Of a DNA stretch of 64,000 bases, positions 5,255-57,516 are shown in pieces. The stretch covers positions 32,001 through 96,000 of the IMG/VR virus record IMGVR_UViG_3300042890_002891; one strand, given 5' to 3'. Below the pieces are notes generated by a model. The model was given only the letters and a program-made list of their open reading frames with translations, was not told the DNA's origin and did no database searches. The DNA is from a virus. Lineage: Duplodnaviria > Heunggongvirae > Uroviricota > Caudoviricetes. The stretch's first letter is position 1; the number at the start of each line of letters is the position of its first letter. The position numbers and the translations under genes were made by a program.

Positions 5255-5271
5255 TTGGTAATATTCCAGCG

Positions 5272-5298: not shown

Positions 5299-5318
5299 AT
5301 CTAGATTTGTTGTATAAT
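5290..5318 (+). promoter_or_regulatory. Sigma70-type promoter, probably leaderless transcript
   Basis: TTTACT-17 nt-TATAAT; ATG begins 5 nt after the -10 box. Confidence 0.6.
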
Positions 5319-5323
5319 ACAGC

Positions 5324-7204: not shown

Positions 7205-7526
7205 TTTCTGGGCAGCACTCAGTGCCATGCCTGCACCTGAGCCGGTGTTCTACAGACTATACTACAACAGCGATGGTTATCCTGTGGCGTATTCAATGGA
7301 GGATATTCCGGGACTGTATGTTGAAATAGATCAGACTACCTATAATGCAAACAACAAGCACATTAGAGTTGTTGACGGAAAGATTGTGACCCAACGGTTT
7401 AATAGAATAACTAAACTTGTGCCTGCTGACTCTGGATCCCCTTGTCATCCTGACAATGTCGCTGTAATCGTCAGTGAGCACAAGCCCCACCAAAAATGGA
7501 CCAAGAAAACTTATGAACCAAATTGA
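7173..7526 (+). CDS. Hypothetical protein
   Basis: Start moved to ATG 7173 (MSNKQP); YRLYY motif. Confidence 0.6.
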   Translation: MSNKQPLSVDDFWAALSAMPAPEPVFYRLYYNSDGYPVAYSMEDIPGLYVEIDQTTYNANNKHIRVVDGKIVTQRFNRITKLVPADSGSPCHPDNVAVIVSEHKPHQKWTKKTYEPN

Positions 7527-8439: not shown

Positions 8440-8440
8440 T

Positions 8441-8965
8441 ATGCTCAAACCAATTTATTTAAATTATGATTTTTCAAAGATTTTATCTGCTGACTATTCG
8501 CAACATGAGGGTAGTTGCATCAGTCATTTGGCCACAGAGTTAGCAGATGATTATGCGCCATACGGCGGTCTTCCAGGATCATACTGTTATGAAAACACAA
8601 AGATACATCAGTTATGGTGGACCAATGATGACATTGACTTTGATGAGATTGGGCATAAATTAAACATGCAAGTGATTACTGTTAGTAGTATATGCCAGCC
8701 TCCGGGATGTATAGTTCCTTTGCATCGAGACACTTTTTATCAAATCAATCAACGTTGTCCAGAACGAACAGAACTCAAAGTCCGAGCCAACATCTATCTT
8801 GAAGATTGGAAACTAGGGCAGTTTATACAATATGACAATGACATCAGTGCTAAATGGAAAGTAGGTGAAGGATTTATGTGGGATTCTACTCATTTACATC
8901 TTTCAGCCAATGCAGGCATGCAAAACAAATATACCTTACAAGTATCAGGATTTTTAAAACAATAA
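8441..8965 (+). CDS. Cupin / 2OG-Fe(II) oxygenase-like protein
   Basis: PLHRD (HxD) and distal H (HLSAN) metal ligands. Confidence 0.6.
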   Translation: MLKPIYLNYDFSKILSADYSQHEGSCISHLATELADDYAPYGGLPGSYCYENTKIHQLWWTNDDIDFDEIGHKLNMQVITVSSICQPPGCIVPLHRDTFYQINQRCPERTELKVRANIYLEDWKLGQFIQYDNDISAKWKVGEGFMWDSTHLHLSANAGMQNKYTLQVSGFLKQ

Positions 8966-8966
8966 G

Positions 8967-9896
8967 ATGTTCACTATAATTTGCAACAATGACAAAATTT
9001 GGAATCAACTCGAGTTGATCGACTATCTTGTCAAGAACCAAGACAAAACAGTTGAGTTAGATATAAATCCTGAAGCAACATGCCTGACAAATCTTGGTGT
9101 ATATCAATTATTAGATCTTTTTAGTTTTAAACAGGTGAACATTTACACTTGGAATCCTTTAGAATACCACCCTAAATATCAAATCAAATTGGTAGATACA
9201 AATTATGTATTAAAAAAAACAATACAAATACCCACTCAACTGCAAACATGGGATCAAACAAAAATTTTCTTTTGTTTTTATGGTCGCCCTACTGCTGGTA
9301 GATTGGGGTTAGCAGGACATTTGTTCAAGAAGTACAACCAACAAAGTTTAATTCATTTTTCAACAGACACCGACGACTATTATAAATTTGAATTTGATAA
9401 GCTATTGTCGTATGATACAGCTAGTGTACCCGACGCCAGTGCTCTGCTACAACATCTTCCAATTCTACAATCAAGCAACAATCAATATTCACCGCTTGAA
9501 TATGATTTCCGTGACAAACTTACAGAGCTTTATCAAAGTATTTTAATAGATGTAGTAGGAGAAACTTTTGTTCAAGGAACAACATTTTTTCCTTCAGAAA
9601 AAACTACCCGGCCCATGCTACTGAAAAAACCTTTTGTAACATTTGCATCACAAGATCATATGGCGTATCTTCGGCAGATGGGATTCCAAACATTCCACGG
9701 ATTTTGGGACGAAGATTATGATGGATTTGAAGGGAGAGACCGGTTGATTCGGCTATATCAAGTTATTGGTGATGTAGCAAACCGGCCAATGAATGAATTA
9801 GTTGACATGTATAAAGAAATGCAACCAATCCTGGACCATAATTACAATTTACTAATGTCTCAAAGTTACAACAAAACTATAACAAAAATAATATGA
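8967..9896 (+). CDS. GT-B-like family protein (ET...SEKT.RP motif), paralogue 1
   Basis: VVGET...FPSEKTTRPM...LRQMGFQTF...WDEDYD. Confidence 0.55.
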   Translation: MFTIICNNDKIWNQLELIDYLVKNQDKTVELDINPEATCLTNLGVYQLLDLFSFKQVNIYTWNPLEYHPKYQIKLVDTNYVLKKTIQIPTQLQTWDQTKIFFCFYGRPTAGRLGLAGHLFKKYNQQSLIHFSTDTDDYYKFEFDKLLSYDTASVPDASALLQHLPILQSSNNQYSPLEYDFRDKLTELYQSILIDVVGETFVQGTTFFPSEKTTRPMLLKKPFVTFASQDHMAYLRQMGFQTFHGFWDEDYDGFEGRDRLIRLYQVIGDVANRPMNELVDMYKEMQPILDHNYNLLMSQSYNKTITKII

Positions 9897-11266
9897 GCAA
9901 AAGCGATTTTTTATCTTCAGCCGAAAAAATGCATGCCGAGCTTGGTCCTGCCTTGTGCTTGGCCAAATGGAAACAGGTCAGTTTTCATCTACCCACAGGG
10001 CTCAATAACTCATGCTATCATCCGCCCTTGCACCGAATACCCATCGAAGACATTGGACGTAATCCTTCCGCATTGCATAACACTCCGCACAAGAAAGAAC
10101 AGCGCAAACTCATGCTGGCAGGTGTCAAACCTGCGGAGTGTAGCTATTGCTGGAACATGGAAGCACAAAACAAGCTGAGTGATAGACACTACAGATCAGG
10201 CGAGCCCTGGGCCGCAGTAGATTTTGACAAAATAAAAAGCTCAACAGGAGATGAAGATGTTATTCCCAGTTATGTGGAAGTTAATTTTAACAATGTTTGC
10301 AACCTTGCATGCAGCTATTGCAGCCCGCAGTTCTCAAGCACTTGGCAGCAAGAAACTGATCGGCACGGTGCATATCCTACTCTGGTGCCTCATAACGCTC
10401 CTGAGCATTTTTCTGGTGACCGTAAGCCCATTCCAGCCCGTGATCACAATCCTTATGTAGAAGCATTTTGGGAGTGGTGGCCCACCTTGTATCCTGAGCT
10501 GGAACACTTTAGAATGACCGGCGGCGAGCCCTTGTTGGATCGCAATACCTATAGAGTATTCGACTATGTGCTGGAGAACCCTAGTCCCAAATTACACCTG
10601 AATGTTACGTCAAACTTTAGTGTAGATGAAAAGTCATGGCAAAAATATCTAGCCTATGTGAAACAACTATGTGATGGGCGCATAGAACACTTCATGCAGT
10701 ATGTGAGTCTAGATGCCTGGGGAGCTCAAGCAGAGTACATACGTCACGGTCTGGACTTTGATCTGTTGTGGGATCGAGTTGACCAGTTTCTTACTCAAGT
10801 GCCTAGCTACAACAGCCTGACATTTATTGTCACAATGAACAATCTCAGTGTGTCAAGCCTGGACCGATTGTTGGCAGGCATACTGGAACTACGTAAAAAA
10901 CACAGTACAACATATCAGCGTGTGTGGTTTGATACTCCTGTGCTGCGTGAACCTGCATGGCAGAGCCTGCAAACACTGGGAGAATCTTATGCTGCACGGC
11001 TTGACACAGTCAAAGACTACATGGCTGCACACTTGGAAACATCTGCAAATCCATTCAAAGGTTTCAAAGACTACGAAGTGGCCAGGCTAGACAGAGACAT
11101 TGCCTGGATGCGATCAGGGCAAGCTGCGGATCAAAGTTGTAGTCAAGCAGACTTTTATCGTTTTTTCAGCGAAGCAGATCGCCGTCACGGAACAAATTTT
11201 TTACAAGTGTTTCCTGAAATGCGAGCCTGGTGGGCCGAATGTGAGTACCATGCTAGACAAAACTAA
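9893..11266 (+). CDS. Radical SAM protein with N-terminal twitch/SPASM-like Cys cluster
   Basis: CNLACSYC, TGGEP, N-terminal C..KW...SC.H..C..CW. Confidence 0.85.
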   Translation: MSKSDFLSSAEKMHAELGPALCLAKWKQVSFHLPTGLNNSCYHPPLHRIPIEDIGRNPSALHNTPHKKEQRKLMLAGVKPAECSYCWNMEAQNKLSDRHYRSGEPWAAVDFDKIKSSTGDEDVIPSYVEVNFNNVCNLACSYCSPQFSSTWQQETDRHGAYPTLVPHNAPEHFSGDRKPIPARDHNPYVEAFWEWWPTLYPELEHFRMTGGEPLLDRNTYRVFDYVLENPSPKLHLNVTSNFSVDEKSWQKYLAYVKQLCDGRIEHFMQYVSLDAWGAQAEYIRHGLDFDLLWDRVDQFLTQVPSYNSLTFIVTMNNLSVSSLDRLLAGILELRKKHSTTYQRVWFDTPVLREPAWQSLQTLGESYAARLDTVKDYMAAHLETSANPFKGFKDYEVARLDRDIAWMRSGQAADQSCSQADFYRFFSEADRRHGTNFLQVFPEMRAWWAECEYHARQN

Positions 11267-12395
11267 TCTAGTAGTAGATACATTCAGTGTTGTATACGAT
11301 TTACTAAAACCCTTTGCTAGTCAGGAGTTCTGGGAGTTTGCTGATCATGTGCCAGTCACGGGTGCAACCTATGTTATAGGACGCAAACAACTGGTAGAAA
11401 ATAGACCCAGAATCAGAGCCATGTGCGAGTCTAACCAATACTGCATGGTGTTTGACGGTGCTGCTGAAGGATCCTGGACACTGATAGAACAAATACGCAT
11501 GTTGGGCATAGAAGATCTTGTGTTGAGCAAGCAACTGCTGATACTCAGTGGCGGTGTCATGCCCGCTAAGTATCCTGCACTAACACATGATCATTTCTTT
11601 AATGTGATACTGGGCTATGACGAAAATCTACAGCAGATGGAACGCATGCCCGAAATTTACAATACCACATCCAAGCCTTATGATTTTTTATTCCTAAATG
11701 GGCGAGCAAGGCCACACAGAAAATACCTGTGGGAACGATTGAATCAACTGGGCCTGCTGGATCGGGCAATATGGTCCATGCTCGATGGAAGGCCCACGCT
11801 CAAAGGCACAGAGCTAACGCTCATGTCCGGCAGTGTCGATTTAATGACCACAGTGACACCTATACGTCAACTGGATTCCCAATACGAAGTTGCACGATAC
11901 CAAAACAATTCAGTGGAGATAACCGAACCCAAACGGCAATTTATCAAGCAAGACATGTTTCACAACACCTGGGGTGAAATTTATCTACAAACCGAACCCT
12001 ATGCTGATACCTACTTTAGTCTGGTCACAGAAACCATATGCGAACACGGCAACAGTTTTCGAACTGAAAAGATTGCCAAACCGCTGGCACAAGGACATCC
12101 GTGGATCGTGGCAAGCAATGCTGGATTTTATCGTGATCTTCGCAACTTGGGATTTCAAACATTCGGGCATGTGATAGACGAGTCGTTTGATTTGATTGAC
12201 AACACCCAAGATAGACTCAATCGAATTGTCGAAATTGTACAGGATCTTTGCAGTCAAGACCTTGCAAAATTTCTCAATGAGTGTTACACTGTATGTAAAT
12301 ACAATCAACAACATCTCGGTGAGTATCGAGAGCAACTACGCCGCGACTTTCCCCAGCGGTTGTTTGATTTTTTACAAGAGCATACCCTTCAGTGA
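11250..12395 (+). CDS. GT-B-like family protein, paralogue 2
   Basis: LVTET...RTEKIAKP...LRNLGFQTF..IDESFD; start moved to ATG 11250. Confidence 0.55.
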   Translation: MLDKTNLVVDTFSVVYDLLKPFASQEFWEFADHVPVTGATYVIGRKQLVENRPRIRAMCESNQYCMVFDGAAEGSWTLIEQIRMLGIEDLVLSKQLLILSGGVMPAKYPALTHDHFFNVILGYDENLQQMERMPEIYNTTSKPYDFLFLNGRARPHRKYLWERLNQLGLLDRAIWSMLDGRPTLKGTELTLMSGSVDLMTTVTPIRQLDSQYEVARYQNNSVEITEPKRQFIKQDMFHNTWGEIYLQTEPYADTYFSLVTETICEHGNSFRTEKIAKPLAQGHPWIVASNAGFYRDLRNLGFQTFGHVIDESFDLIDNTQDRLNRIVEIVQDLCSQDLAKFLNECYTVCKYNQQHLGEYREQLRRDFPQRLFDFLQEHTLQ

Positions 12396-13729
12396 ATGAT
12401 TTAGAATTTAAACGCACAGTGCTAGACCCACTGAGTGAGAGTTTTTGTGCAGCGAAATGGTACAATGCTACCATTTGGTTAGGAAGTGGACAGACCACAA
12501 GTTGTCATCACCCGCCAGCCCATTTGGTCGACAAAGATAAAGTCAGTATCAACCCTAGGCTGCTGCACAATACTGATCAGAAGAAAGACGACCGTCGCCG
12601 GATGATTGCAGGCGAGCGTCCTGCAGGTTGCGAATACTGCTGGAAGATCGAAGACATGGGTCGAGATGCTGTGAGCGACCGCGTATACAAAAGCAAGATT
12701 TATCCTATTACCACACTGAAAGAAGCATATGAAACTCCACCAGATCAAGACGTTAATTTACGCACTCTTGAAATCGCCTTTGACCGCACTTGTCAGTTTG
12801 CTTGTAGTTATTGTAACCCTGCTTTCAGTAGCACCTGGGTACGAGATATTAAAAATAATGGCCCGTACATAGGATTGGTTAGTGATGGTCGTAATCACTT
12901 TACGCATGGGCATGATAGCTCACAACTGTATAGCTTTAATGAAACTAATCCCTATGTCGAAGCGTTCTTTAAGTGGTGGGAAACGGATCTACATAAAACA
13001 CTCCAGGAGCTGAGAATAACAGGTGGTGAACCGCTAATGTCGGGTTATACCTGGAAGCTGATTGACTGGTTCAAACAGAACCAAGGTCGCAGCACAACCC
13101 GGTTGGCTATCAATTCAAACCTAGGCTTTGATTCACACAAACTACAGGAGTTTGTCACAGCAATTGAATCATTGCCGCATGTGGAACTTTACACATCCAT
13201 GGAAGCGGTGGGTACTCAAGCTGAATACATTCGTGACGGTCTGGACTATGCTCAGTGGTTGGCCAATGTACACACTCTGTTACAGAGTCGTGCAGTAAAA
13301 ACTCTGCATGTGATGTGTACTATAAATGCCTTGTGCCTGAACAGCTTGCCCGAGTTGCTGAATCAACTCATGGATCTAAAACGATTGTATGGTCGCGATC
13401 AAGTGAGCTTTACCTTGAATATTCTACGCTTTCCCAGCTTTCAGTCAGCCCTGGTGTTGCCCGAAGATATTCGCACCGGCTATAGAGTTGTGCTGGAAGA
13501 ATGGCTGTACAAGAATCGTGCCAACCCGTGGCTGCATGAGCATGAAGTAAATCACACACAGCGTCTGATTGATTACCTAGATGTGGTCAAGACACCGCAC
13601 TCGGACGCTTTTGAACAGCCCAAACTGCTGAATGACTTCCGTGAATTCTATTCTCAATACAACGGCCGCAGAGACAAGAACTTTGGCGCCGCATTTCCTA
13701 AATTAGCCGCATGGTATGACACATTATGA
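12392..13729 (+). CDS. Radical SAM protein (twitch-type)
   Basis: CQFACSYC, TGGEP. Confidence 0.85.
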   Translation: MNDLEFKRTVLDPLSESFCAAKWYNATIWLGSGQTTSCHHPPAHLVDKDKVSINPRLLHNTDQKKDDRRRMIAGERPAGCEYCWKIEDMGRDAVSDRVYKSKIYPITTLKEAYETPPDQDVNLRTLEIAFDRTCQFACSYCNPAFSSTWVRDIKNNGPYIGLVSDGRNHFTHGHDSSQLYSFNETNPYVEAFFKWWETDLHKTLQELRITGGEPLMSGYTWKLIDWFKQNQGRSTTRLAINSNLGFDSHKLQEFVTAIESLPHVELYTSMEAVGTQAEYIRDGLDYAQWLANVHTLLQSRAVKTLHVMCTINALCLNSLPELLNQLMDLKRLYGRDQVSFTLNILRFPSFQSALVLPEDIRTGYRVVLEEWLYKNRANPWLHEHEVNHTQRLIDYLDVVKTPHSDAFEQPKLLNDFREFYSQYNGRRDKNFGAAFPKLAAWYDTL

Positions 13730-15441
13730 CCTTGAATGAAAAAATAACAGAATTACAATCTCAGTACGATGTATTGGCCGTGATTGATCTTGACCCTTGG
13801 CATGATTTAAATATCTATAATAAAAAGCCCTGGATGATAAAAACAGTTCAATCGGTACATAGAGATTATTATGATACCACTCAACGAATATTATTTACAA
13901 TGTCGCGTGGTGACATATATGAAGATGTTGAACAATCGGCAGGGCAATTGCTAACACAACTACAGCACAGACTCAATGACATTGACATATCTAATTTTTT
14001 TGTCATCTTGCTGACCAATGATGTTACTGTGCGCAATGCTTATACGGCTAACTACCAGTCTCTTTCTAAAGATTCAGTCCCTTTTACAATTGAAGTTTAT
14101 ACGGTTGAACACACGGATCGTCGGCCACAAGATAAAATGACCAAAAATATAAAACCAGGCAGTTATCAATACAATTATCTAGGTCCAATGAGAGTTGATA
14201 TAGAAGATCTCACCGAACAAGAACAATTCTTACTGACCAAAAGTTCTACGTTTTGCATGTATCCCTGGATGCATTTTCATGCCTATCCCACTGGAGCAGC
14301 ATATCCATGTTGCCAGGCAGATATGGAATTTTCTATTGGAGACATGAGAAAGAATACTATCAAGGAAATATGGAACCAAGAACCGATAAAAAAAATACGT
14401 AATCAGATGCTGAATGAACAATCTGTTTCGGCGTGTAACAGGTGCTACGAGCAAGAGTCGGCGGGATTTGTCAGTGGAAGAATGAGTGCCAACAAACATC
14501 ACGGACATCTTATCAATCGAGTACATGAAACTGAACCTGATGGAACTCTAGACAGATTTGAGTTGACCTACTGGGACATAAGATTTTCAAATCTCTGTAA
14601 TCTAAGTTGCCGCAGTTGTGGCCATATTTTTTCAAGTTCTTGGTACAAGGATCAAGCCAAACTAGCCGGCCCTGACTGGAAAAAAACACACAAGGTGTTG
14701 AACTATGCTGGTAGATTTGAAACTGATGCATGGGATCAATTAGTGGATCATATTGAGCATGTTGAACAGATCTACTTTGCCGGCGGCGAACCATTGCTCA
14801 TGGAAGAACACTATAAGATTCTAGACGAACTGGTGCGACAAAAAAAGTTCAATGTACGATTAATATACAACACTAATTTCACGCATACCAATCTCAAAGA
14901 TAAGAGTGTATTTGAATATTGGAAATTGTTTGATTCAGTTAGTGTAGGTGCCAGTCTAGACGCTAGCGGTGCTCGCGGTGAATACATACGCAAGGGTACC
15001 AGCTGGACAGTGGTAGAACAAAACCGTCGAAAAATGATTGAAATCTGCCCTGCTGTAGACTTTTATATCAGTCCCACACTCAGCATAATGAATGCTCTAC
15101 ACTTGCCAGACTTTCACAAAGATTGGGTTGCAAAAGGCCTGATTCGAGCACAGGATCTCAATGTAAACATTCTGCAAGATCCTGCACATTACAGAATAGA
15201 CATAGCACCTGCTGAATACAAAGGTATATTGCTAGCCCGATATCGCGAACACATTGAATGGCTTCGCGGGCAAGATCCATTACAGCGAGCCACAGTGGGA
15301 TTCGAATCGGCTATCACCTACATGACAGCCACAGACAACACACACCTACTGGATACATTCTGGCGCAAAACACATGAACTGGATGGTATTCGTAACGAAC
15401 GTATGCTGGACATTATTCCTGAATTGTCGGCACTCAGATGA
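13726..15441 (+). CDS. Radical SAM protein (twitch-type) with extra N-terminal domain
   Basis: CNLSCRSC, AGGEP, FCMYPW...YPCC. Confidence 0.85.
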   Translation: MTLNEKITELQSQYDVLAVIDLDPWHDLNIYNKKPWMIKTVQSVHRDYYDTTQRILFTMSRGDIYEDVEQSAGQLLTQLQHRLNDIDISNFFVILLTNDVTVRNAYTANYQSLSKDSVPFTIEVYTVEHTDRRPQDKMTKNIKPGSYQYNYLGPMRVDIEDLTEQEQFLLTKSSTFCMYPWMHFHAYPTGAAYPCCQADMEFSIGDMRKNTIKEIWNQEPIKKIRNQMLNEQSVSACNRCYEQESAGFVSGRMSANKHHGHLINRVHETEPDGTLDRFELTYWDIRFSNLCNLSCRSCGHIFSSSWYKDQAKLAGPDWKKTHKVLNYAGRFETDAWDQLVDHIEHVEQIYFAGGEPLLMEEHYKILDELVRQKKFNVRLIYNTNFTHTNLKDKSVFEYWKLFDSVSVGASLDASGARGEYIRKGTSWTVVEQNRRKMIEICPAVDFYISPTLSIMNALHLPDFHKDWVAKGLIRAQDLNVNILQDPAHYRIDIAPAEYKGILLARYREHIEWLRGQDPLQRATVGFESAITYMTATDNTHLLDTFWRKTHELDGIRNERMLDIIPELSALR

Positions 15442-16208
15442 ATATGTTTGGGTCATCTTATAAAAACTTGCTGGTGTCAGGGTGTAGTTTTACGCATAAC
15501 AATTATCATACTCCGGTTTCATGGGCAAACAATCTAGCACACTGGGCCGGATTAAACATTCACAATTTGGCAATACCAGGGGCTGGCAACACACATATCA
15601 AAAACAGCATTATATTATGGCTTGAACAACACAAACCCAATCCCAAGGACCTATTGATTATGGTCATGTGGAGCGGAATCGAGCGTGTGGATTGGATAAC
15701 TGATCCAACACTTAGCAACTTTAAAAAGGCATACCAATTTACCTATGATTATTCAGACTGCACTGAATTAGTAGTAGGTGGCAATTGGTGGGCAAATCGT
15801 CAAGTATCACTGGTAGAACAAGCTCTTAAAGAATATACAAAATTTCAAAACAATCAAAGTTTGGCATTGACTTCCTGGCTAGCCATGACACAGTTAACTG
15901 ATTATCTCAGACAAAGAGATTATACGTTTTACTACACTGCCTACCAGAATTTATGGTGTGAGGGTGATAAAACCAATCAATGGATCAACTATGGCATAGA
16001 ACTTGAAAAACTTAATCTGATATTAGATAATGCTCCTTGGTTGTTTTTTGATCACAAGCATTTTCTAGGAACATGGGTAAAAACACATAATCATCTGTGG
16101 GAAGATAATCTACATCCTTCACATATAGGACACGAACTATGGTGTCAAGAAGTGTTGATACCGTTGCTGATAGAAAAAAAAGCGTTATATGAACTTACCA
16201 CACAATAA
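15438..16208 (+). CDS. SGNH/GDSL hydrolase-like protein
   Basis: GCSFT, GAGN, DNLHP. Confidence 0.65.
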   Translation: MNMFGSSYKNLLVSGCSFTHNNYHTPVSWANNLAHWAGLNIHNLAIPGAGNTHIKNSIILWLEQHKPNPKDLLIMVMWSGIERVDWITDPTLSNFKKAYQFTYDYSDCTELVVGGNWWANRQVSLVEQALKEYTKFQNNQSLALTSWLAMTQLTDYLRQRDYTFYYTAYQNLWCEGDKTNQWINYGIELEKLNLILDNAPWLFFDHKHFLGTWVKTHNHLWEDNLHPSHIGHELWCQEVLIPLLIEKKALYELTTQ

Positions 16209-17403
16209 ATTTTGTATATTACCTTGGATCAGCTTAGAAGCTAGTCCAATTGGCACTGTGCGACCTTGCTGCCTAGCCGATGACGAAATTTTGGACAACA
16301 ACGGAAACAAGTTTGAATTATCTACTGCCAATTTTGTTGACATACAAACCAGTGATCACATGCGTGATTTACGCATTAAATTCTTAGCAGGGAGCCGGCC
16401 CGAAACATGTAGAAAATGTTGGAATGAAGAAGATGCAGGACGCAAATCAAAACGAATGCATACCCTAGATCGCCTTAAACACTCTTTAAGAGATGAGCCC
16501 TGGACTACAGATGCCAGGCCATTGATGTTCCTGGATCTCAAACTGGGCAACATCTGCAATTTAAAATGTCGCATATGCGGTCCCTGGAGTTCAAGTCAGT
16601 TTGCCACAGAAGAATTGAACTTCATGCCGCGGGCAGAACAAAAAAGTTCTCATGCATATCAAATGCTGCGAGCCGGTGCCTGGCCCCGAGAAAATGAACA
16701 ATTCTGGAGCCAGATTGACAGTGTGCTAACAGACATACGCTATATAGAATTCACCGGTGGCGAGCCCTTTATGATCGCTGAACACTTTGCAATGCTGCAA
16801 GGTATTGTGGATCGCGGAATTGCACATCAAGTTGAAATTCATTACAACACAAATGGTACTCAATATCCAGAAAAGGCGCATGAAATATGGCGTCATTTCA
16901 AAACAGTAGAAATTGCATTCTCAATTGATGACCTGAATCAACGCTTTGAATATCAGCGCACCAATGCTGTGTGGACTGAAGTGTGTGACAATCTACAACG
17001 CTTTAGACAACTGCGCACACAATATCCCAACATTCAACTACAGTGTTGCTCAACTGTGAATGTGTTCAATGTGCGTTACATAGATCAGCTGGCCTGGTGG
17101 ATCCAGGATCAGAAATTTAATTATGTGTACTGGAATATCATGCACGATGCCTGGTACTTTAGTATCTCTACTCTGCCAGATTCAGCTAAAACTGCTATCA
17201 CACACTATTTGAAATTTAATGCTGGACCGGCCCGCTACCAACAAGATATCAATGGTGTGATTGATTTCATGAATCATGGAGCCAGCACAGATGGGGTTAT
17301 GCTGAGATCAAATATAGCAGATCTGGACCGCAAAAGAAATCAAGACTTTGCTGTGATCTGTCCCGAAATGGCTCAGTTGATTGAGTACAAGTTCAATGGC
17401 TAA
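16189..17403 (+). CDS. Radical SAM protein (twitch-type)
   Basis: CNLKCRIC, TGGEP. Confidence 0.85.
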   Translation: MNLPHNKFCILPWISLEASPIGTVRPCCLADDEILDNNGNKFELSTANFVDIQTSDHMRDLRIKFLAGSRPETCRKCWNEEDAGRKSKRMHTLDRLKHSLRDEPWTTDARPLMFLDLKLGNICNLKCRICGPWSSSQFATEELNFMPRAEQKSSHAYQMLRAGAWPRENEQFWSQIDSVLTDIRYIEFTGGEPFMIAEHFAMLQGIVDRGIAHQVEIHYNTNGTQYPEKAHEIWRHFKTVEIAFSIDDLNQRFEYQRTNAVWTEVCDNLQRFRQLRTQYPNIQLQCCSTVNVFNVRYIDQLAWWIQDQKFNYVYWNIMHDAWYFSISTLPDSAKTAITHYLKFNAGPARYQQDINGVIDFMNHGASTDGVMLRSNIADLDRKRNQDFAVICPEMAQLIEYKFNG

Positions 17404-18295
17404 ACTGGTATTGCAACCGGAACAATTTACCAGTTTTACAAGCTGGTATCTGGAACCGTTGTGGCAAGAATATTTCAATATTGAGACTTACGATGAATCT
17501 AAGACCTACAGTAAAAATTCATTGTTTGTGTTCTGGTGGATGAATGCTCGAGACCCATTGGCAAATCAACTGTTGAATCGAGGTTATAAAGTTATTGTTG
17601 ATAATTTATGGGAAGAGCCTAATACTTCATTTGCCCGGTTTTATCAACTGTCAAACGCAAACTGGTTCAGATGGAACGAAGCATTATGGTGGCAAGCTCT
17701 AGGATATCATCAATACAGCGCAGAAAAAACCTATAAAAAAATTGCATTGATGCCCATACACAGAGTTAGTCCACGTCGTGACCGAATTGTTGAAGAATTA
17801 CATCCCTGGCTAGAACACATGTTGTGGAGTTACAAAAATAACAGACTGCCCAATGATGAATATACCATTGACAATTTAGACGTTAATCAACGTTTTATGA
17901 ATCCGCAATGGTATAATGATACCTGTATAAATTTAGTAGTGGAAACTGCCCAGCATGGTCAACTTTTTCGTCTGACAGATAAAACCTACAAGTCATGTGC
18001 TTTTTATCAGCCCATGTTGATAATAGGGCAATCAGATTCGTTGACATTTCTAAGAGACCAAGGGTTTGAAACATTTGATAATATATTTGACGAAAGCTAT
18101 GATCAGGAATCTAATTTTGAAAAAAGATTAAAACTAGTGATAGAAAATCTAAGTCTAGTCACACAGGAGCCATATTCTCCAATTACCTGGCAAAAACTAC
18201 AGCACAATCACAATCATTTTTTCAATGAACAATTATGTAAACAAGGTATAATAACACAAATCATTGAACCTCTAATAGAATATGCAGAATCTTGA
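17396..18295 (+). CDS. GT-B-like family protein, paralogue 3
   Basis: LVVET...LTDKTYK...LRDQGFETF..FDESYD. Confidence 0.55.
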   Translation: MAKLVLQPEQFTSFTSWYLEPLWQEYFNIETYDESKTYSKNSLFVFWWMNARDPLANQLLNRGYKVIVDNLWEEPNTSFARFYQLSNANWFRWNEALWWQALGYHQYSAEKTYKKIALMPIHRVSPRRDRIVEELHPWLEHMLWSYKNNRLPNDEYTIDNLDVNQRFMNPQWYNDTCINLVVETAQHGQLFRLTDKTYKSCAFYQPMLIIGQSDSLTFLRDQGFETFDNIFDESYDQESNFEKRLKLVIENLSLVTQEPYSPITWQKLQHNHNHFFNEQLCKQGIITQIIEPLIEYAES

Positions 18296-18314
18296 ATCAA
18301 GGAAACTAATTTAA

Positions 18315-18971
18315 ATGAAATACAATCGAGTTTTTGCGTTTGGAGACAGTTTTACCTATGGGCATGAATTAAGTGATTGTCCTACTAATAACTGGCCGAC
18401 TCCGAGCAATCTTTCATACGGGGGATTAGTAGCTAATAAGTTATCTGCAGAATATCATTGCCATGCCATAGGAAGCTATGCCAACAACGCAATTTCTAGA
18501 AGAATAATACAAGCACTTCCAATATTAACACAGCATGACATGGTATTAGTTATGTGGACTGCCACTGTGAGACACGAGTTACTTTTACAGGATGAAGGGT
18601 GGATAAGTCTTTTGCCAACTAGCACCATGCCAATGTCAATAGAATATTTTAAACACATTGATACAACCCCACAGTATCATATTGACAAGACTTTAAAAGA
18701 AATATACATTTCTCAACAACTTTTAACCTCAGCAGATATACCACATATCTTTATGAGTTCAATGACCGATTTGTCTCAAGGAATACAAAATCAAGAAAAT
18801 TTACTGTCAACAAAACTTGATCTTGACAAATGGATATTTCTTGACAACGGCCTTGGGTTTGTCGAATGGTCAAAAAATATATTAAATCTTCAATTTAGTG
18901 GGCATCCTCGAGATGCCGCCCATGAAGCATTAGCAAAAAAAATACTAGCCAAAATACATGACCAAACCTGA
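18315..18971 (+). CDS. SGNH/GDSL hydrolase-like protein
   Basis: FGDSFTYG ... GHP. Confidence 0.65.
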   Translation: MKYNRVFAFGDSFTYGHELSDCPTNNWPTPSNLSYGGLVANKLSAEYHCHAIGSYANNAISRRIIQALPILTQHDMVLVMWTATVRHELLLQDEGWISLLPTSTMPMSIEYFKHIDTTPQYHIDKTLKEIYISQQLLTSADIPHIFMSSMTDLSQGIQNQENLLSTKLDLDKWIFLDNGLGFVEWSKNILNLQFSGHPRDAAHEALAKKILAKIHDQT

Positions 18972-20247
18972 TTCACTATGCTTGGCCCCCTGGGTCCACA
19001 CCTATCTTTCGCCGCAGACCGAACGCAGAATGTGCTGTGCTTCGCGAGAGCCTGCACAGAATTTTGCGCAGTACATAGACACAGCCGCAGGCACAGGACG
19101 GTATATTCCCATCACACTAGAGCAACACTGGAATGGTGAACACATGCGAAGTGTGCGCAGACGCATGCTAGCTGGAGAAACCTTGCCCGAGTGCGAAGTG
19201 TGCAATGACCAACTGCTGAACACTGATGTGTACCGCACCTATTTTGAACACCTGTTCCGCCACAAACTGCCCGAAGTAATCAGCAGTACTGCCCCAGACG
19301 GCAGCACCACTATGCAGCCCGTGAGCTGGGATTATCGTTTTAGCAATCTGTGCAACTTCAAGTGTAGAATGTGCGGTGATATGTTGAGCAGCGCCTGGGA
19401 AAGCGAACAGCGTCAGCATAAAATGATTGACTGGACCAATCCCAAGAACGCCTGGATGCAGCCTGAGATTCGCCAAGAGATTGCTGTGTTTCAGGATACT
19501 CAGATTGAAAAAGAATTTTCAGATGCTGTAGAGCAACATCGTGTGGAAGAAGTGTACTGGGTAGGCGGCGAGCCCTTGATGTATGAACAGCACTGGCGCT
19601 ACATGGCTCGTATTGTGGAACTCGATGATGGCCACAGAGTATATGCCAGGTACAATACCAATCTCAGCAGAGTTGACTACGGTGGGCGTAATTTATTTCG
19701 TGATATACTGGCTCACATGCGCGATTGGCAAATATGCGCAAGTCTGGACGGAGTTGAAGCCACAGGAGAATACATTAGAACAGGACTTGACTACGATCAC
19801 TGGCTTGCGAACTTCCGTCAAGGATTAGAGTACAGTTCGCATCCAAGACAAATGCGCATAGACTTTACACTAACTCTACCGGGTATGACACAGGTCCTAG
19901 CGGTACAGCAACTAGCCCAAGAATTGGGTGTGCAACTGCTGGCCAAAGTGGTGTTTAGTTTCAGTCCAGATATCATAATGAGCCCACTGGCATTACCAAG
20001 AGAAATACTGCATCCTTGGCTGGACGAGCTGATTGATGTTACTTCAGGTGCCATGCGTGACGTGCTGGTGCAGTTGAAATCACGTCCCACATTTGACGAA
20101 CAATGGCCAGACACCTATGCTTCGGGTCTTGCAAAAGGCCGGGCATATATGTTACAATTAGAAAGCATACGCAAATCATCAACTTCGATGGCTGATATCC
20201 TGTCAGCAAGACCTGCGGTGCTAGAATGGTGGAACCAACATGCTTGA
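18958..20247 (+). CDS. Radical SAM protein (twitch-type)
   Basis: CNFKCRMC, VGGEP. Confidence 0.85.
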   Translation: MTKPDSLCLAPWVHTYLSPQTERRMCCASREPAQNFAQYIDTAAGTGRYIPITLEQHWNGEHMRSVRRRMLAGETLPECEVCNDQLLNTDVYRTYFEHLFRHKLPEVISSTAPDGSTTMQPVSWDYRFSNLCNFKCRMCGDMLSSAWESEQRQHKMIDWTNPKNAWMQPEIRQEIAVFQDTQIEKEFSDAVEQHRVEEVYWVGGEPLMYEQHWRYMARIVELDDGHRVYARYNTNLSRVDYGGRNLFRDILAHMRDWQICASLDGVEATGEYIRTGLDYDHWLANFRQGLEYSSHPRQMRIDFTLTLPGMTQVLAVQQLAQELGVQLLAKVVFSFSPDIIMSPLALPREILHPWLDELIDVTSGAMRDVLVQLKSRPTFDEQWPDTYASGLAKGRAYMLQLESIRKSSTSMADILSARPAVLEWWNQHA

Positions 20248-21277
20248 TACTATACGGATGGACCTGAGAAGCACTGACGATCAAGTGATGTCAGTGTACA
20301 TTGATGTAGAGGATAACAGTCTCTCACGCAAATGGTTGGCAGCATTGAATCAGTTGATTCAGAATCAGAATCATCTAGAAAAGAATTACTGTTGGATAGG
20401 ATGGGCAAACAGCAAACGTGATCCAGAATACATCTGTACACAAATTAATCGCAGCATACATGCTGTTAATTCAGCAGGTCTAGGATATGTTATAAAAGAC
20501 TTTTTCACTCCTGCCAACACAATTGATATCAATCTTGGTATTAATCATGCCCACATGAATCAATTACACAGATATTTTGAAGACCTTCAAGGGGTATCGG
20601 GCGCAATGAGTCCGTATTACACAGCCGCAGATGATACAACTCGTTGGCACATACGTCAGTTGAATTTGCTGTGTCATGAACTAGAAAGTCTGGTATTAAG
20701 CATTCGCAAGTTAAAAACTGCTCCTGTATGGCAGCGACCATCGCAACTGATGTGTTGGCTGCAAGCACCACGTTTTGAATTAGATGCTGAAGATTATGAA
20801 TTGTTCGGAATAGAAACAATAAATCGATCTTTGGGCGGTGTGTATGCGGGAGTAAACAAAGCTGTGGGTAAACATCATTGGGAAGTGTTCACAGACGAAG
20901 GCCGAGACAGTCGTGTGAATGAACTGGTAACCAGTACACTTAGATCACAAACTCAAGCAGCCGGCGATTTTGATATAGAATGGGCCAATGATCCGGGTGC
21001 ATTTCCGTGGCAGATTTTGGCACTCAAAGAATTTCGCGAATGGTTAGTGGCCAACGGCTTTGATCCTGAAGATAAAAGTTTGACAATTGGCCATCCTAAG
21101 GTAGCACAAGTGGATCTTGTGCGCAGCTTTGGCACAACAGATTATGAAAAAATATGGTCGCAGTTATACAAGCACCAGGATGTGCATAGAATAAGTACTA
21201 GCACCGCTACTGCAACATACGAATATCACTGGAATGATCCAGACTATGATCTACAACAAATAAGGAAATTGAAATGA
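20240..21277 (+). CDS. Hypothetical protein
   Basis: 345-aa ORF coupled on both sides. Confidence 0.75.
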   Translation: MLDTIRMDLRSTDDQVMSVYIDVEDNSLSRKWLAALNQLIQNQNHLEKNYCWIGWANSKRDPEYICTQINRSIHAVNSAGLGYVIKDFFTPANTIDINLGINHAHMNQLHRYFEDLQGVSGAMSPYYTAADDTTRWHIRQLNLLCHELESLVLSIRKLKTAPVWQRPSQLMCWLQAPRFELDAEDYELFGIETINRSLGGVYAGVNKAVGKHHWEVFTDEGRDSRVNELVTSTLRSQTQAAGDFDIEWANDPGAFPWQILALKEFREWLVANGFDPEDKSLTIGHPKVAQVDLVRSFGTTDYEKIWSQLYKHQDVHRISTSTATATYEYHWNDPDYDLQQIRKLK

Positions 21278-21375
21278 CCTGGCTAAAGAACTTATGGGCA
21301 AGAATTACCCTGGAATATCGTTACCGAAAGAAATTAAAAGAATTGAGAAAGCGTGATCCTTTTATCTATAAATGA
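21274..21375 (+). CDS. 33-aa peptide MTWLKNLWARITLEYRYRKKLKELRKRDPFIYK, carbamoyltransferase-associated small protein
   Basis: ATGA overlaps with both neighbours; PFIY ending recalls small proteins found beside NodU-type carbamoyltransferases. Confidence 0.7.
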   Translation: MTWLKNLWARITLEYRYRKKLKELRKRDPFIYK

Positions 21376-22853
21376 ATATACTAGGAGTCTCGGCAGGGTT
21401 TCATGACGCTGCTGCCACAGTGCTGAGTTCACAAGGTGACGTGTTGTTTGCTGGACACAGCGAACGCTACAGCAAACGCAAGAATGATGCCGACTTCTGT
21501 CCAGGGCTCTTGGATGATATCTTGCCGTATGCACCTGCGCATGTGGCCTATTATGAACGTCCCTGGGCCAAGCAACTGCGTCAACTTTATGCTGGACAAG
21601 GCATTGACTGGAACAAACTCACAGTAGGGCAAATACTCAAGTCTCAGCTGGGCGACAGTATTGAACCAGAGCGAGTATCTAGTCACAGTCATCACCTGAG
21701 CCATGCGGCTTCAGGATTTCAAACCAGCCCGTTTGATCGTGCCACAGTCGTGGTAATAGATGCAGTGGGCGAATGGGAAACAGTTACTATATGGGGCGCA
21801 GAATATGATTCAACGGGTCGTGCAATTTATAAAAAACTGTGGCAACAAAATTACCCACATTCCATCGGACTCTTTTATAGTGCAGTCACTGGCCGCGTTG
21901 GCCTACACCCACTAGACGAAGAATACATACTAATGGGCATGGCTGCTTATGGCAATCCGGGCATCAGCGAACTCATGAGAATGAATCTGGTGCAGGATGA
22001 ATGGGAAATTAGATTCAAAGAAAATCTACACACAGGACTAGATCCCAAGTATCTGGAACATTTTAGTGACGCAGATCTGGCAGCAGGGGCACAGGATCTA
22101 GCGGAAGACTTGATTCTAAACGTCATGATGCGAGCTCGAAACTTCAAGTTCAGCAGCAATCTAGTTTATCAAGGCGGGGTTGCACTCAATTGCAGTGCCA
22201 ACAGACGAATAGGAAATTATTTTGAAAACATTTGGATTATGCCTTGCCCTGGTGATGCTGGCTCTAGCCTGGGAGCCGCTGCGTTGGCTTATGGTCAGCG
22301 GGTTAATTGGACTAGTGCTTTTCTTGGCCATGATATCCCCGGTGCTTATCCTGTTAATCTTCTACTTGATAATCTTGTTACCACTGGCATTGTTGGCGTG
22401 GCCTCAGGTCGTGCAGAGTTTGGACCTAGAGCCCTTGGACATAGAAGCCTGCTTGCAGACCCCAGAGGACCAGACATAAAAGATCGTGTGAATGAAATCA
22501 AACGACGTCAACAGTTCCGACCATTTGCTCCTGTGATACTGGAAGAACTGGCTGATCAGTACTTTATCATGCCTCGTGGTTGGGAACACAGTCCTTACAT
22601 GCAGTCAGTGAGTCATTGTCGCAGTCCTGAACTGTATCCTGCTATTGTGCATCATGATGGCACCAGCAGAGTACAAACTGTATCAAAAGATTCGCCATCG
22701 GGCATTAGAGAACTCTTGGAAAAATGGTATGTCATGACCGGCTGTCCCATGCTGCTGAACACCAGCCTGAACATACGCGGTGAACCCATGGTCAACGATC
22801 GCGCGGACGCAGATCGATTCGAAGCCTTGTACGGTGTTACTGTGTGTAGCTAA
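21372..22853 (+). CDS. O-carbamoyltransferase (NodU/CmcH family)
   Basis: FHDAAA, HHLSHAAS, DAVGE, GGVALN, EFGPRALGHRS, FRPFAP, LLNTSLN. Confidence 0.95.
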   Translation: MNILGVSAGFHDAAATVLSSQGDVLFAGHSERYSKRKNDADFCPGLLDDILPYAPAHVAYYERPWAKQLRQLYAGQGIDWNKLTVGQILKSQLGDSIEPERVSSHSHHLSHAASGFQTSPFDRATVVVIDAVGEWETVTIWGAEYDSTGRAIYKKLWQQNYPHSIGLFYSAVTGRVGLHPLDEEYILMGMAAYGNPGISELMRMNLVQDEWEIRFKENLHTGLDPKYLEHFSDADLAAGAQDLAEDLILNVMMRARNFKFSSNLVYQGGVALNCSANRRIGNYFENIWIMPCPGDAGSSLGAAALAYGQRVNWTSAFLGHDIPGAYPVNLLLDNLVTTGIVGVASGRAEFGPRALGHRSLLADPRGPDIKDRVNEIKRRQQFRPFAPVILEELADQYFIMPRGWEHSPYMQSVSHCRSPELYPAIVHHDGTSRVQTVSKDSPSGIRELLEKWYVMTGCPMLLNTSLNIRGEPMVNDRADADRFEALYGVTVCS

Positions 22854-24009
22854 GACGGTCAATCAAGCGAGCTAGACTGGGCCTGGAACGCTGTATAAAC
22901 AATTGTTGGTTGTGTATCAAATCGGGCATGCATTTCAAATACCATTGATGCAGGTCCTGCTGTTTGATCTGCTGCAAAGTTTGTTTTACAGCAAACCAAC
23001 GTTGAGTATTATCTACTATGCTATCGTAACTGTTGTCAATCACTGAATCAAATGTACGATATCCTGCAGAACGCAAGGCCGCCAAACTGCCCACGGGTCC
23101 TGCTATCACAAATGGTTGTCCAAACTTCATGCACTTGTAGGTTTTTTCAGTGATAAAAGCACCACCGCTTTGATCCACATCAAACAAGGTTTCGATTGAG
23201 ATGTGGCAATAGCTGTTAAGATAAAGATCAGTATTGATCATTCTGTGATCGTTGTGTGCATCTGAATCAGGACCGTCACAGTAGTATGGACCATTTGCCA
23301 GGAACAACTGTAGTTTTTTGACCCAGTCCGAGTCAGACTTTATGCTAATAGGGTTGTTGTCCTCCAGATCATCTATAGTGCAATCAGTATTGTAACTCCA
23401 CAGGCTGTTGTTTAGAATACCATCGGCATGCAGATCACTCATGATGCTGCCGCGCCACCATTTGTGTATGCGATTCAGTGCAGTAAAGTCATACTGTCTA
23501 GGAAGATCAGTTACAGGAGTGTAACCTTGACGACGATTAACATAACTCAAAAAGTATTCGTGATCTGGAAAGTAATGGCATCTAGCCACAGAATTGGCCA
23601 CAGTATTGGCACTCACAAACAAATAACAATCCACAGGCAGCTGATGTTGCACACACAAACTATCCAGACGTTCTCGTATGCGATCAGGATTGTCCCCTTC
23701 GTGATAGTAGAACAATACTTTTATTTCTTTCAGCTGCAATTTAGCAATAGTGTTGAGTTTCATTAGTCCAAAATAATCACAATCAAAATCGTGCCAGCCC
23801 AGCGCAACCGGATACCAACTACCTGCGGGTGCTTGATCCACTGTGCTGCTGGTCCAAACGGCCCCTGCATGTTTGAGATATACTAGCAGTCTGAATGCAA
23901 TTGTTCTGGGCCAGGTGTTGTCAAAGTCGTCTGGCCCTAGACCTAGATCAGCAAGATTAGGATATCCTAATTCAGGATCACTCATGGTGTCGTAGCAAAA
24001 ATTTATCAT
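22837..24009 (-). CDS. GT-B-like family protein, paralogue 4
   Basis: ISIET...ITEKTYK...LRSAGYRTF..IDNSYD. Confidence 0.55.
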   Translation of the reverse strand: MINFCYDTMSDPELGYPNLADLGLGPDDFDNTWPRTIAFRLLVYLKHAGAVWTSSTVDQAPAGSWYPVALGWHDFDCDYFGLMKLNTIAKLQLKEIKVLFYYHEGDNPDRIRERLDSLCVQHQLPVDCYLFVSANTVANSVARCHYFPDHEYFLSYVNRRQGYTPVTDLPRQYDFTALNRIHKWWRGSIMSDLHADGILNNSLWSYNTDCTIDDLEDNNPISIKSDSDWVKKLQLFLANGPYYCDGPDSDAHNDHRMINTDLYLNSYCHISIETLFDVDQSGGAFITEKTYKCMKFGQPFVIAGPVGSLAALRSAGYRTFDSVIDNSYDSIVDNTQRWFAVKQTLQQIKQQDLHQWYLKCMPDLIHNQQLFIQRSRPSLARLIDRLSYTQ

Positions 24010-39480: not shown

Positions 39481-39803
39481 ATTGCTATTTTTGATTACAA
39501 GGTATAACTACCTCGTTTGGCGTCAAGCGTTAGCTGCTACCAAATATTGTGAGTCATTTGCATTTCTCTTTTTTGTGTCTACGGCCGAGCTTCCCCAACC
39601 CTAACGGCTTCTACATTGCCGGACTGTCCATTTCTGTACTCTTAACCCTGTCGAAACTATGCAGGCCCATTATAAAGAATACTACTGAATTGTGTTGGAT
39701 GTTGCCATCCGCAAAAACCTGTGCAATATTCTTTATGGTGGACCTGGGGGGATTCGCACCCCCGTCCAGAATCCTTTTCTGTCTACTTCATACAGTCTTA
39801 ACT
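39481..39803 (-). ncRNA. ssrA: Circularly permuted (two-piece) tmRNA
   Basis: Acceptor piece with T-arm GGGGG-TGCGAAT-CCCCC and CAGGTCC-A-CCA (3' end 39736), hairpin intervening segment, coding piece starting GGGCCTG (39668) giving G3.U70; tag ORF 39561-39523 ANDSQYLVAANA*; outer ends approximate. Confidence 0.92.
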
Positions 39804-52989: not shown

Positions 52990-53024
52990 AAAAGAAAAAA
53001 CCCTGGAGTTTTTAGTTCCAGGGT
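52990..53024 (-). terminator. Attenuator terminator 2
   Basis: ACCCTGGA-9 nt-TCCAGGGT-TTTTTCTTTT. Confidence 0.85.
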
Positions 53025-53051
53025 CTTTTGAATTTGCGGATGTTAACTTAG

Positions 53052-53180
53052 TTACTCATCACACCTCTCAAGAGATCCCGGAACGCCTGGAATACTATTC
53101 ATGCGACCATACGCATGTGACCAGGCGGATACCTGGGTAAACATGGGTTTCGTCAACAGTGAACAGAGAGTTGTTTTCAT
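53052..53180 (-). CDS. Putative attenuator leader peptide 2 (MKTTLCSLLTKPMFTQVSAWSHAYGRMNSIPGVPGSLERCDE)
   Basis: Between a consensus promoter and a terminator; 3' codons contain an antiterminator arm. Confidence 0.7.
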   Translation of the reverse strand: MKTTLCSLLTKPMFTQVSAWSHAYGRMNSIPGVPGSLERCDE

Positions 53181-53190
53181 CTTAAATCCT

Positions 53191-53219
53191 ATTATACTTT
53201 ATTTATCATTTGATGTCAA
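53191..53219 (-). promoter_or_regulatory. Consensus sigma70 promoter with embedded TAAATA late box
   Basis: TTGACA-tcaaatgaTAAATAaag-TATAAT. Confidence 0.85.
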
Positions 53220-56156: not shown

Positions 56157-56629
56157 ATATAGAAACACACTCAAAACTGCTGTTAAACCCTTGCAGGGGC
56201 ATGCCTAGTTAAAAAATGTGTTCTTATATGGCTGGCAATGTTATGAGGGCTCTTACCCCATCGTTGTTTGTATAGGCTGCGCGACCTATACATCCCGGAC
56301 ACACTCCCTGACCCGGCAATGCTTACTTTGTGGCTCTTGCTTTCCACTTGATTCTGATCATATAGAAACACACTAGAGTTTTACGATAAACTACGCTCCT
56401 GAGTTTCTGCTCAGGACCCCATAGGTCTGCCTATGTTTCTAATGTGTTTTTATATAACAAAATAGTGAACAGGATTTGCACCTGTGCCCACAGCCTGTTG
56501 ACAAGACTGCACTCTCCTACTAATCTACCACCATATAGGAACACACTGGCACTCAATTGTCAATTGCAGAGCATAATAATTCTACGCCCTATGAGTTACG
56601 CATACTCTTCCAATGTGTTTTTATATGGT
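56153..56629 (-). repeat. Three copies of a conserved-stem/variable-loop hairpin (56153-56233, 56359-56457, 56530-56629)
   Basis: TATA(A)RAACACATT ... AGTGTGTTYCTATATG on the minus strand. Confidence 0.75.
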
Positions 56630-56769: not shown

Positions 56770-56844
56770 TGGTAGAGCATAGCGGAGTCGAACCGCTCTT
56801 AGTGGACTGAAAACCCACTGTCCTAACCGATAGACGAATGCTCC
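56770..56844 (-). tRNA. tRNA-Glu(TTC)
   Basis: Cloverleaf, CCA. Confidence 0.9.
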
Positions 56845-57122
56845 ACTATATGAAAACACACTTATTCAGGAACGTGCTGATCAAACACAAGAGAGCTACT
56901 CTTGTGCCCATCCGCTGTCATTACTGTCCACATGTTCCGCCGCTTGTCCAGATCAACTGATTTCTCAGTGAGAGCCTATTTCATGCCAGCGAGGGAGTAG
57001 CCTGCTAAGGCGGGGTTCAAACCCATAATCCTGATTCACTTGCCTAACGGTGTGGATAACCTGTATAACTGTGCTTACATATAGTGCCCAGAACCAAATC
57101 TGGGTACACTATACAAAATCAA

Positions 57123-57310
57123 ATTTTTAACGAACTCTTCACACTGTGTCAATGCACTGTGCTGCTTTCTAACTAGTCTCTAGTATAACATGTTATGCAA
57201 TACTGGTCAACCTGTTTTGCAAATGCCCCGCTGTAGTGTAGGGTCTTTGCAAAATCTGCTGTTCTCCTGTCTCTTGTGTGTATTATAGCACTAGACTGAA
57301 TAAGAGTCAA
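57123..57310 (-). promoter_or_regulatory. Tandem sigma70 promoters plus boxA-like element heading the ncRNA/tRNA operon
   Basis: TTGACT-17-TATAAT (57310-57282), TTGACC-17-TATACT (57210-57182), GTTCGTTAAAAAT (57135-57123). Confidence 0.7.
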
Positions 57311-57317
57311 CCGCCAT

Positions 57318-57340
57318 AAAAAAACCCGCTTGCTGCGGGT
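57318..57340 (-). terminator. Attenuator terminator 1
   Basis: ACCCGC-AGCAA-GCGGGT-TTTTTT. Confidence 0.85.
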
Positions 57341-57366
57341 CTTTGAAGGATGCGTTTTTGATCACA

Positions 57367-57456
57367 TCAACAAAGACCCAGGCTCCCGTCACGCTCATAG
57401 GCCATCCCCGAATCAATTGTCGGTATGACTGCTGAGAGGATAGTGAGCCGGTTCAT
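57367..57456 (-). CDS. Putative attenuator leader peptide 1 (MNRLTILSAVIPTIDSGMAYERDGSLGLC)
   Basis: TAGACT-17-TATACT-6-ATG; last codons carry GGGTCTTTG, complementary to the terminator foot. Confidence 0.7.
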   Translation of the reverse strand: MNRLTILSAVIPTIDSGMAYERDGSLGLC

Positions 57457-57516
57457 AAGTGTAGTATATATGCCTTTGCGACAAAAGTCTATTATTTTGG
57501 CAAAATTTGTGGTGGT

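Follow-up and report, generated by a model that had tools for sequence, protein, structure and literature searches.

The theory of leader-peptide attenuation has been worked out for the enterobacterial trp, his, leu, thr, pheA and ilv attenuators (PMC1183508), and in mycobacteria leaderless polycysteine short ORFs attenuate operons (bioRxiv 10.1101/834739). In the literature that we searched, no tRNA genes were reported to be governed by a leader peptide. Little is known of the reasons for which phages carry tRNAs or of the regulation of these; recent work connects phage tRNAs with host defences that cut tRNAs (PMC10264068). Here we describe an unannotated compact module of ~175 bp (positions 57318-57492, minus strand) in a freshwater jumbo phage. 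Tentatively, and at what we judge to be slightly short of an even chance, we read it as a ribosome-operated conditional terminator of the leader-peptide attenuator type that heads a stable-RNA/tRNA-Glu operon. If this is true, it would be the first leader-peptide control of tRNA genes, as far as the literature found goes, and the phage would couple its tRNA output to the state of translation.

Like the enterobacterial attenuators, the module combines a short ORF with an intrinsic terminator and has a competing helix built on bases of the terminator stem; in those systems a ribosome that stands at the end of the ORF keeps the antiterminator from forming, and in the module it does so according to a folding model. 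Unlike the enterobacterial systems the module has a leaderless start, has no tandem cognate codons and is borne by a phage; rather than biosynthetic enzymes it would regulate a non-coding RNA and tRNAs that have promoters of their own. Set against seven defining features of leader-peptide attenuators, it matched four, the probably translated ORF being counted on its coding signatures, and failed two, the tandem codons and the 1:2 hairpin. The ORF contains no tandem or identical run of regulatory codons, only a conserved Y-E-x-D cluster. Since the 1:2 hairpin is missing, the untranslated RNA is predicted to read through, unlike that of the enterobacterial attenuators, and the absence both of a codon run and of a conserved hairpin that forces termination without translation counts against the attenuator reading. 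The module resembles the mycobacterial elements in that a short ORF, leaderless by its promoter spacing, would open the transcript and is proposed here to act as a ribosome-based sensor; those elements carry a Cys-codon tract and unmask a ribosome-binding site, whereas the phage module has no codon tract and its output is an intrinsic terminator.

The window, that is the whole 64,000-nucleotide stretch analysed here, comprises bases 32001-96000 of an IMG/VR virus record of 261,673 bp with an estimated completeness of 75%. It carries 30 tRNA genes and a permuted tmRNA, on the minus strand throughout. The gene immediately upstream of the leader unit encodes P0002 (187 aa), which has ~600 relatives on IMG/VR contigs of up to 525 kb, and the window stretch itself was found in lake metagenomes; the phage therefore belongs to a widespread freshwater jumbo-phage clade. 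Among the GenBank phages searched the sole matches were tRNA-Leu fragments, and hence there is no annotated relative there. The two-piece tmRNA (39523-39797, minus strand) has the tag ANDSQYLVAANA, and the tags of relatives end in FALAA; these presumably resemble betaproteobacterial tags, and on this likeness we guess that the host may be a freshwater betaproteobacterium. Several relatives (L107, L412, L429 and L432) possess a tRNA with the anticodon CUA, labelled 'Pyl' by ARAGORN, which is possibly an amber suppressor within the tRNA array. One early-promoter module, TTGACC-17-TATAAT-ACACACATA...AAGGAG, occurs in ~25 copies genome-wide, nearly all of them on the minus strand, and the ordinary early genes have a short leader with AAGGAG. 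Across the whole genome at least seven genes besides the leader ORF, ranging in length from 50 to more than 300 codons, place their ATG at +6/+7 from a consensus -10 box, and at these leaderless genes, again at least seven, the module reads ...ACACACATG; leaderless starts are therefore regularly used in this phage.

All elements of the leader unit lie on the minus strand. The promoter consists of the -35 hexamer TAGACT (57486-57491), a spacer of 17 nt and the -10 hexamer TATACT (57463-57468), and matches the consensus at 9/12 positions; most relatives have TTGACT or TTGACA at -35, and a conserved A+T-rich stretch precedes it. Six nucleotides past the -10 box the ATG at 57456 opens a leaderless ORF of 29 codons plus TGA (57367-57456, protein P0001), and given this spacing transcription is expected to start on the AUG or right beside it. 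The ORF includes Tyr-Glu-Arg-Asp codons (57388-57399) that correspond to the family motif A-Y-E-x-D. Its final codons contain the 5' arm GGGTCTTTG (57379-57371) of a 9-bp helix, P1, which is the perfect complement, over 9 nt, of the 3' arm CAAAGACCC (57345-57337). Between the arms lies the P2 hairpin GATGTG/CGCATC (57349-57368), the 5' side of which overlaps the stop codon. The final ACCC of the P1 3' arm constitutes the first four bases of the stem of the intrinsic terminator (57318-57340), which has a 6-bp stem ACCCGC/GCGGGT (57340-57335 and 57329-57324), the 5-nt loop AGCAA and a T7 run at 57324-57318. A simple terminator scan missed this site because the stem can extend into the T run. A first, sequence-only reading of this DNA, which had proposed a leader-peptide attenuator, had located these elements accurately: the promoter with its ATG 6 nt on (57491-57456), the 29-codon ORF, the perfect 9-nt complement and the terminator are all where it had placed them. 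P1 is included in the minimum-free-energy fold of the window copy (z = -3.5), and a survey of the 261,673-bp genome for strict terminator-like sites gave 13, of which this is the only one with an upstream perfect complement of at least 7 nt that overlaps the 5' arm of the stem.

The unit represents a family, of which ~46 distinct copies were found in related freshwater jumbo-phage contigs, one per genome. A pattern search with the exact arms returned ~20 true copies from viral contigs, and metagenomes contributed a further 7. A covariance model, a search that the sequence-only reading had suggested, was built from the exact-arm copies and run on 50 related records; it found one copy per record in 18 of these, including a new one (L134) with 8/9 P1 pairs, and weak matches in two more, an outcome that supports a family, and in the window's own genome it found the 57-kb unit as the single copy. 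Because both searches use the P1 helix as bait, two bait-free searches were added. A search by the boxA-like site of the downstream operon gave 12 distinct loci, ten of them with a leader that has full P1 and two, L317 among them, from which the whole leader is absent, and a search by promoter and 5'-end pattern gave 21 further units. The 9-nt complementarity is hence kept among relatives, including those that were found without reference to the helix, and the loss of pairing in relatives that the sequence-only reading had named as a refutation did not occur. In all copies with scanned downstream DNA tRNA-Glu lies 0.2-0.8 kb downstream of the unit, as a rule with Tyr and Asp behind it. Rfam searches, at gathering thresholds and at E values up to 5, gave no match to the unit, only sub-threshold terminator-like hits to Trp and Thr leaders. 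A generic pattern of A-tract, ACCC-type stem and T run returned mostly ordinary terminators behind ordinary genes, and the shared TTCAAA(A)GACCC foot on its own is therefore not diagnostic.

Two sister subfamilies (9 + 7 copies) retain the promoter, the terminator and the genomic position, an ORF that is homologous and likewise leaderless, and a P2 hairpin whose 5' side coincides with the stop codon. In these 16 copies the complement of the terminator 5' arm is only GCGGG(T), 5-6 nt long, which is not significant alone (shuffle P 0.03-0.25). Five copies of the window's own subfamily carry one P1 mismatch.

The leaderless ORF, 24-36 codons long among relatives, is very probably translated, to judge from its coding signatures. 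The start codon is ATG in all copies of the family, and in the window's subfamily it stands 5-6 nt past the -10 box of a TTGAC(T/A)-17-TATA(A/C)T promoter in 23/23 copies. The distances from ATG to arm (59, 62, 71, 74, 77 and 83 nt) are all 2 mod 3 in 22/23 copies, six ORF length classes thus sharing one frame; the lone exception, L103, has a G run one base shorter in a single contig, and its frame may reflect an assembly error. The ratio pN/pS is ~0.3-0.5 at intermediate divergence and near 1 in very close pairs. The peptide is homologous across all three subfamilies, which share an N-terminal M-x-x-Q, a hydrophobic pattern and an E-(A/L)-(L/A)-x-Y core; conservation between subfamilies does not reach the C-terminus, the length ranges from 24 to 36 residues and the middle is variable. 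Neither the peptides nor the two upstream proteins have a match in Pfam or PHROGs. The position of the ATG, the kept frame, pN/pS and the homology of the peptides together argue that the leaderless ORF proposed from the sequence alone is real.

Constraint at the RNA level is evident in the window's subfamily ('GLC'), where the 9-nt arm is fixed even at synonymous sites. The codon preceding Gly specifies L, Q, R, G, S or W and has G as its third base in nearly all copies; the Gly codon is GGT in the 23 copies with an exact arm, and Leu is always encoded by CTT, which is non-preferred (RSCU 0.70). P2 pairing is kept with at least eight different stems (median shuffle P 0.027), the window having a fully compensated variant, and the distal pairs of the terminator stem covary among relatives. 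The stop codon begins 1, 4, 8 or 10 nt past the arm in 23/23 copies. P1 and the terminator are mutually exclusive via the common ACCC, P1 is part of the minimum-free-energy fold in 20/25 members, and the two states lie 0-6 kcal/mol apart. The 5' two-thirds of the RNA, that is the body of the ORF, have no conserved structure (mean z -0.7); a hairpin inside the ORF was considered as a family feature and rejected, being seen in longer copies only.

The consequences of translation were explored in a folding model that describes equilibrium, not kinetics, in which the T run was removed, as in the RNA-DNA hybrid, and the ribosome was given a footprint that reaches, from the first base of the A-site codon, 15 nt upstream and 12 nt downstream. 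On average the model assigns the terminator a probability of 0.12 when the RNA is naked; a ribosome at the stop codon raises this to 0.95, and one stalled on Glu gives 0.07. In 25/25 members the value for a ribosome at the stop is at least 0.88. A codon-by-codon scan of the model places the switch point at the conserved E-x-D codons, the last stall positions that leave the antiterminator free. Two suppositions of the sequence-only reading are supported here. The helix competes with the terminator, and in the window's subfamily it is under constraint at the RNA level; the masking of the antiterminator by a ribosome at the stop agrees with the position of the stop codon, always 1-10 nt past the arm, and with the modelled probability of 0.95. 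Naked RNA of the sister subfamilies has a modelled terminator probability of 0.91-0.98. Four of the five copies with a P1 mismatch are likewise modelled as constitutive terminators (0.93-0.97), and in the fifth, L442, the probability for naked RNA stays at 0.02.

The anatomy of the unit and the conservation of that anatomy are shown by the sequences, as is the signature of coding, and the energetics are predicted by folding; on this basis the following mechanism can be proposed, in which translation itself, the coupling of ribosome and polymerase, the actual termination efficiencies and the physiological signal are what we infer from the sequence and the model. The host sigma-70 RNA polymerase would initiate on the AUG or beside it, and the leaderless 29-codon ORF would be translated by a 70S ribosome. 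As long as the last codons are free of ribosomes, GGGUCUUUG would pair with CAAAGACCC to form P1, stacked on P2, and so remove the ACCC from the terminator stem; once P1 has formed, the polymerase would read through into the next promoters, the boxA-like site, the abundant non-coding RNA and the tRNAs. A ribosome that reaches the stop would cover the 5' arm and P2, upon which the terminator hairpin could form and the transcript would end at the T7 run. Good translation would thereby lead to termination, and absent or stalled translation to read-through. The strand exchange needed for termination involves 4 bp only (GGGU for GGGU) and could be fast in vivo. The architecture, its conservation and the modelled energetics speak for the attenuator function first proposed from the sequence, and the two sister subfamilies that have no strong antiterminator, the copies with a P1 mismatch and the promoter found behind the terminator speak against it. 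At ~175 bp the module is small enough for direct testing in E. coli extracts.

A second reading, which we consider possible if doubtful, is that of a stand-alone early micro-gene made up of promoter, leaderless ORF and terminator, in which the function resides in the 24-36-residue peptide itself, which might be a small factor for host takeover or against host defences. On this view P1 and P2 would form the 3'-end structure of a short mRNA or reflect tuning within a lineage, and the role of the terminator would be to insulate the strong stable-RNA operon. T4 Stp, a small early phage peptide of 26 residues, offers a comparison: it shares with the unit the size, an early sigma-70 promoter and a location in a region of tRNA supply or repair. 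We know of no sequence similarity between the leader peptide and Stp and, to our knowledge, no helix that overlaps a terminator has been described for Stp. The micropeptide reading stays alive because conservation extends further for the peptide, which is homologous in all three subfamilies, than for the strong antiterminator helix, which is confined to one; the moderate purifying selection on the ORF agrees with this reading. In several relatives the unit is placed between an upstream terminator and a downstream promoter, as befits a self-contained transcription unit. One relative, L317, has the same terminator and downstream promoters with an ordinary protein gene, and no leader ORF, before the terminator; the leader unit hence behaves as a module that can be gained or lost, and the downstream operon is present without it in both L317 and L373. 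A peptide as the product sits less well with the unconserved C-terminus, the variation in length and middle part, the near equality of pN and pS in close pairs and the want of any Pfam or PHROGs match. It moreover leaves unexplained the fixation of synonymous sites in the arm, the fixed third base before Gly and the constant position of the stop codon at the 5' side of P2. Whether or not the attenuator reading is accepted, a conserved leaderless micro-gene in a widespread freshwater jumbo-phage clade stands.

Within the attenuator reading, a more specific proposal is that the leader is a ribosome-stalling sensor for the Glu, Tyr and Asp tRNAs encoded just downstream, which we regard as improbable. 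If it were true, depletion of tRNAs, for example by a host anticodon nuclease, would stall the ribosome, cause read-through and yield more phage replacement tRNAs, a feedback loop against tRNA-targeting immunity. The conserved Tyr-Glu-x-Asp cluster does stand before a Glu-Tyr-Asp tRNA cluster; the correspondence is striking and suggestive but not significant, and serves as a lead only. The presence of Tyr in the leader and of a nearby tRNA-Tyr agree in many clades (both in L090; neither in L103 and the L425 type) and disagree in the window, L249, the L413 type and L094, and in a rough clade-level hand count the association is not significant (Fisher P ~0.1). A match of whole peptides to the downstream tRNA sets was rejected, a hand count giving no signal (10 vs 10 for the 57-kb unit and 15 vs 9 for the 53-kb unit).

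It is very unlikely that the unit merely encodes a small non-coding RNA of ~139 nt, transcribed from its own promoter to its own terminator, in which the ORF is incidental: P2, P1 and the terminator are structured and conserved, and an ATG at +7 arises easily from an early-promoter module that ends in ...ACACACAT, but the invariant ATG, the indels that keep frame in all copies save L103, a conserved Ser position that uses both TCA and AGC, the unstructured 5' two-thirds and the lack of an Rfam match are at odds with it.

The sequence-only reading had in addition stressed the diversity and rarity of the codons in the ORF. The count of 26/29 distinct codons is correct; the expectation under phage codon usage is 21-22 (P ~0.012-0.025), not ~23. 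Likewise CGG, CTC, CCG, TCG and GGG are rare in this phage (RSCU up to 0.57), as are GTC and GAG, but ATA, with an RSCU of 0.78, is not. Among family members the proportion of distinct codons ranges from 20/29 to 25/25 and codon-usage scores are about those of random open windows. The idea of a sampler of many and rare codons is weak because family members are not consistently extreme, and as a family property it was rejected, only the window copy being unusual (26/29, P ~0.02, rare codons).

A paralogous unit at 52992-53219 (minus strand) consists of a consensus promoter, a 42-codon ORF, an imperfect antiterminator and a terminator. Its central helix is weaker and extended by five pairs into its own, different terminator stem; in the model it behaves like the 57-kb unit, the terminator having a probability of 0.29 when the RNA is naked, 0.95 when a ribosome occupies the stop and 0.27 when the ribosome is stalled. 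No sigma-70 promoter better than 8/12 was found before the tRNA-Trp array of this unit, and a search for related loci with an alignment of the 53-kb peptide found none. The architecture that the two units had been said to share is supported via two bridging relatives, L098 and L107, which combine a 53-kb-type peptide with exact 9-nt arms in another reading frame. The common peptide motif 'GSL' turned out to be coincidental, since GSL lies upstream of the arm in the 57-kb unit and is encoded by the arm, in the other frame, in the 53-kb unit. In L107 a 199-aa ORF with an HNH-endonuclease-like motif (5034-5633, plus strand), probably a mobile insertion, lies between the 53-kb-type unit and a tRNA-Tyr cluster.

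Downstream of the 57-kb terminator two further promoters follow on the minus strand, as the sequence-only reading had noted. The second promoter, a sigma-70 promoter TTGACT-17-TATAAT with TG (57310-57282), begins 8 nt past the T run, and the third, TTGACC-17-TATACT (57210-57182), is followed by a boxA-like sequence and the stable-RNA/tRNA-Glu unit. By eye, in printed downstream sequences, a promoter was seen within ~10 nt past the terminator in every relative inspected, and read-through could therefore only add to downstream transcription; the view that the leader provides inducible rather than sole input is borne out in this respect, control being additive. The boxA-like sequence GTTCGTTAAAAATTT (~57114-57128, minus strand) is conserved in relatives and reads TGTTCTTTAACAA in L155, which we take to be close to the rrn boxA of E. 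coli; it suggests Nus-type antitermination of the stable-RNA operon. Tandem consensus promoters and a boxA-like sequence liken the downstream unit to rRNA operons, which, unlike the phage unit, are without an upstream leader ORF or conditional terminator.

In the metatranscriptome run X18 the contig depth is ~6,000-24,000 over 56879-57021 (minus strand) and 5-20 in the flanks, which therefore indicates that a stable RNA, at least 143 nt long and very abundant, is encoded just upstream of tRNA-Glu; Rfam has no match for it. Metatranscriptome contigs on the leader unit have a depth of 3-10 and some bridge the terminator, though contigs cannot show starts, ends or strand. The first downstream tRNA gene, tRNA-Glu(ttc), lies at 56770-56844 (minus strand), and tRNA-Glu is first or near-first in every relative with scanned downstream DNA. 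An inverted repeat, CACTATATGTAA... / ...TTCATATAGTG (~57069-57085 and ~56849-56865, minus strand), encloses the abundant RNA and extends as far as the 5' end of tRNA-Glu; it resembles the processing stems found around rRNAs, and the insert within this stem is much shorter in L082. Between the second and third promoters (57215-57265, minus strand) a third copy of AAAGACCC is found in a palindromic hairpin, UUUUGCAAA ... UUUGCAAAA, that is present in many relatives and absent from L082. Further downstream a tRNA-like sequence at 56461-56534 (minus strand), which scores 35 bits with the Rfam tRNA model and is not called by ARAGORN, may be a degenerate tRNA in the slot that tRNA-Tyr or tRNA-Leu occupies in relatives.
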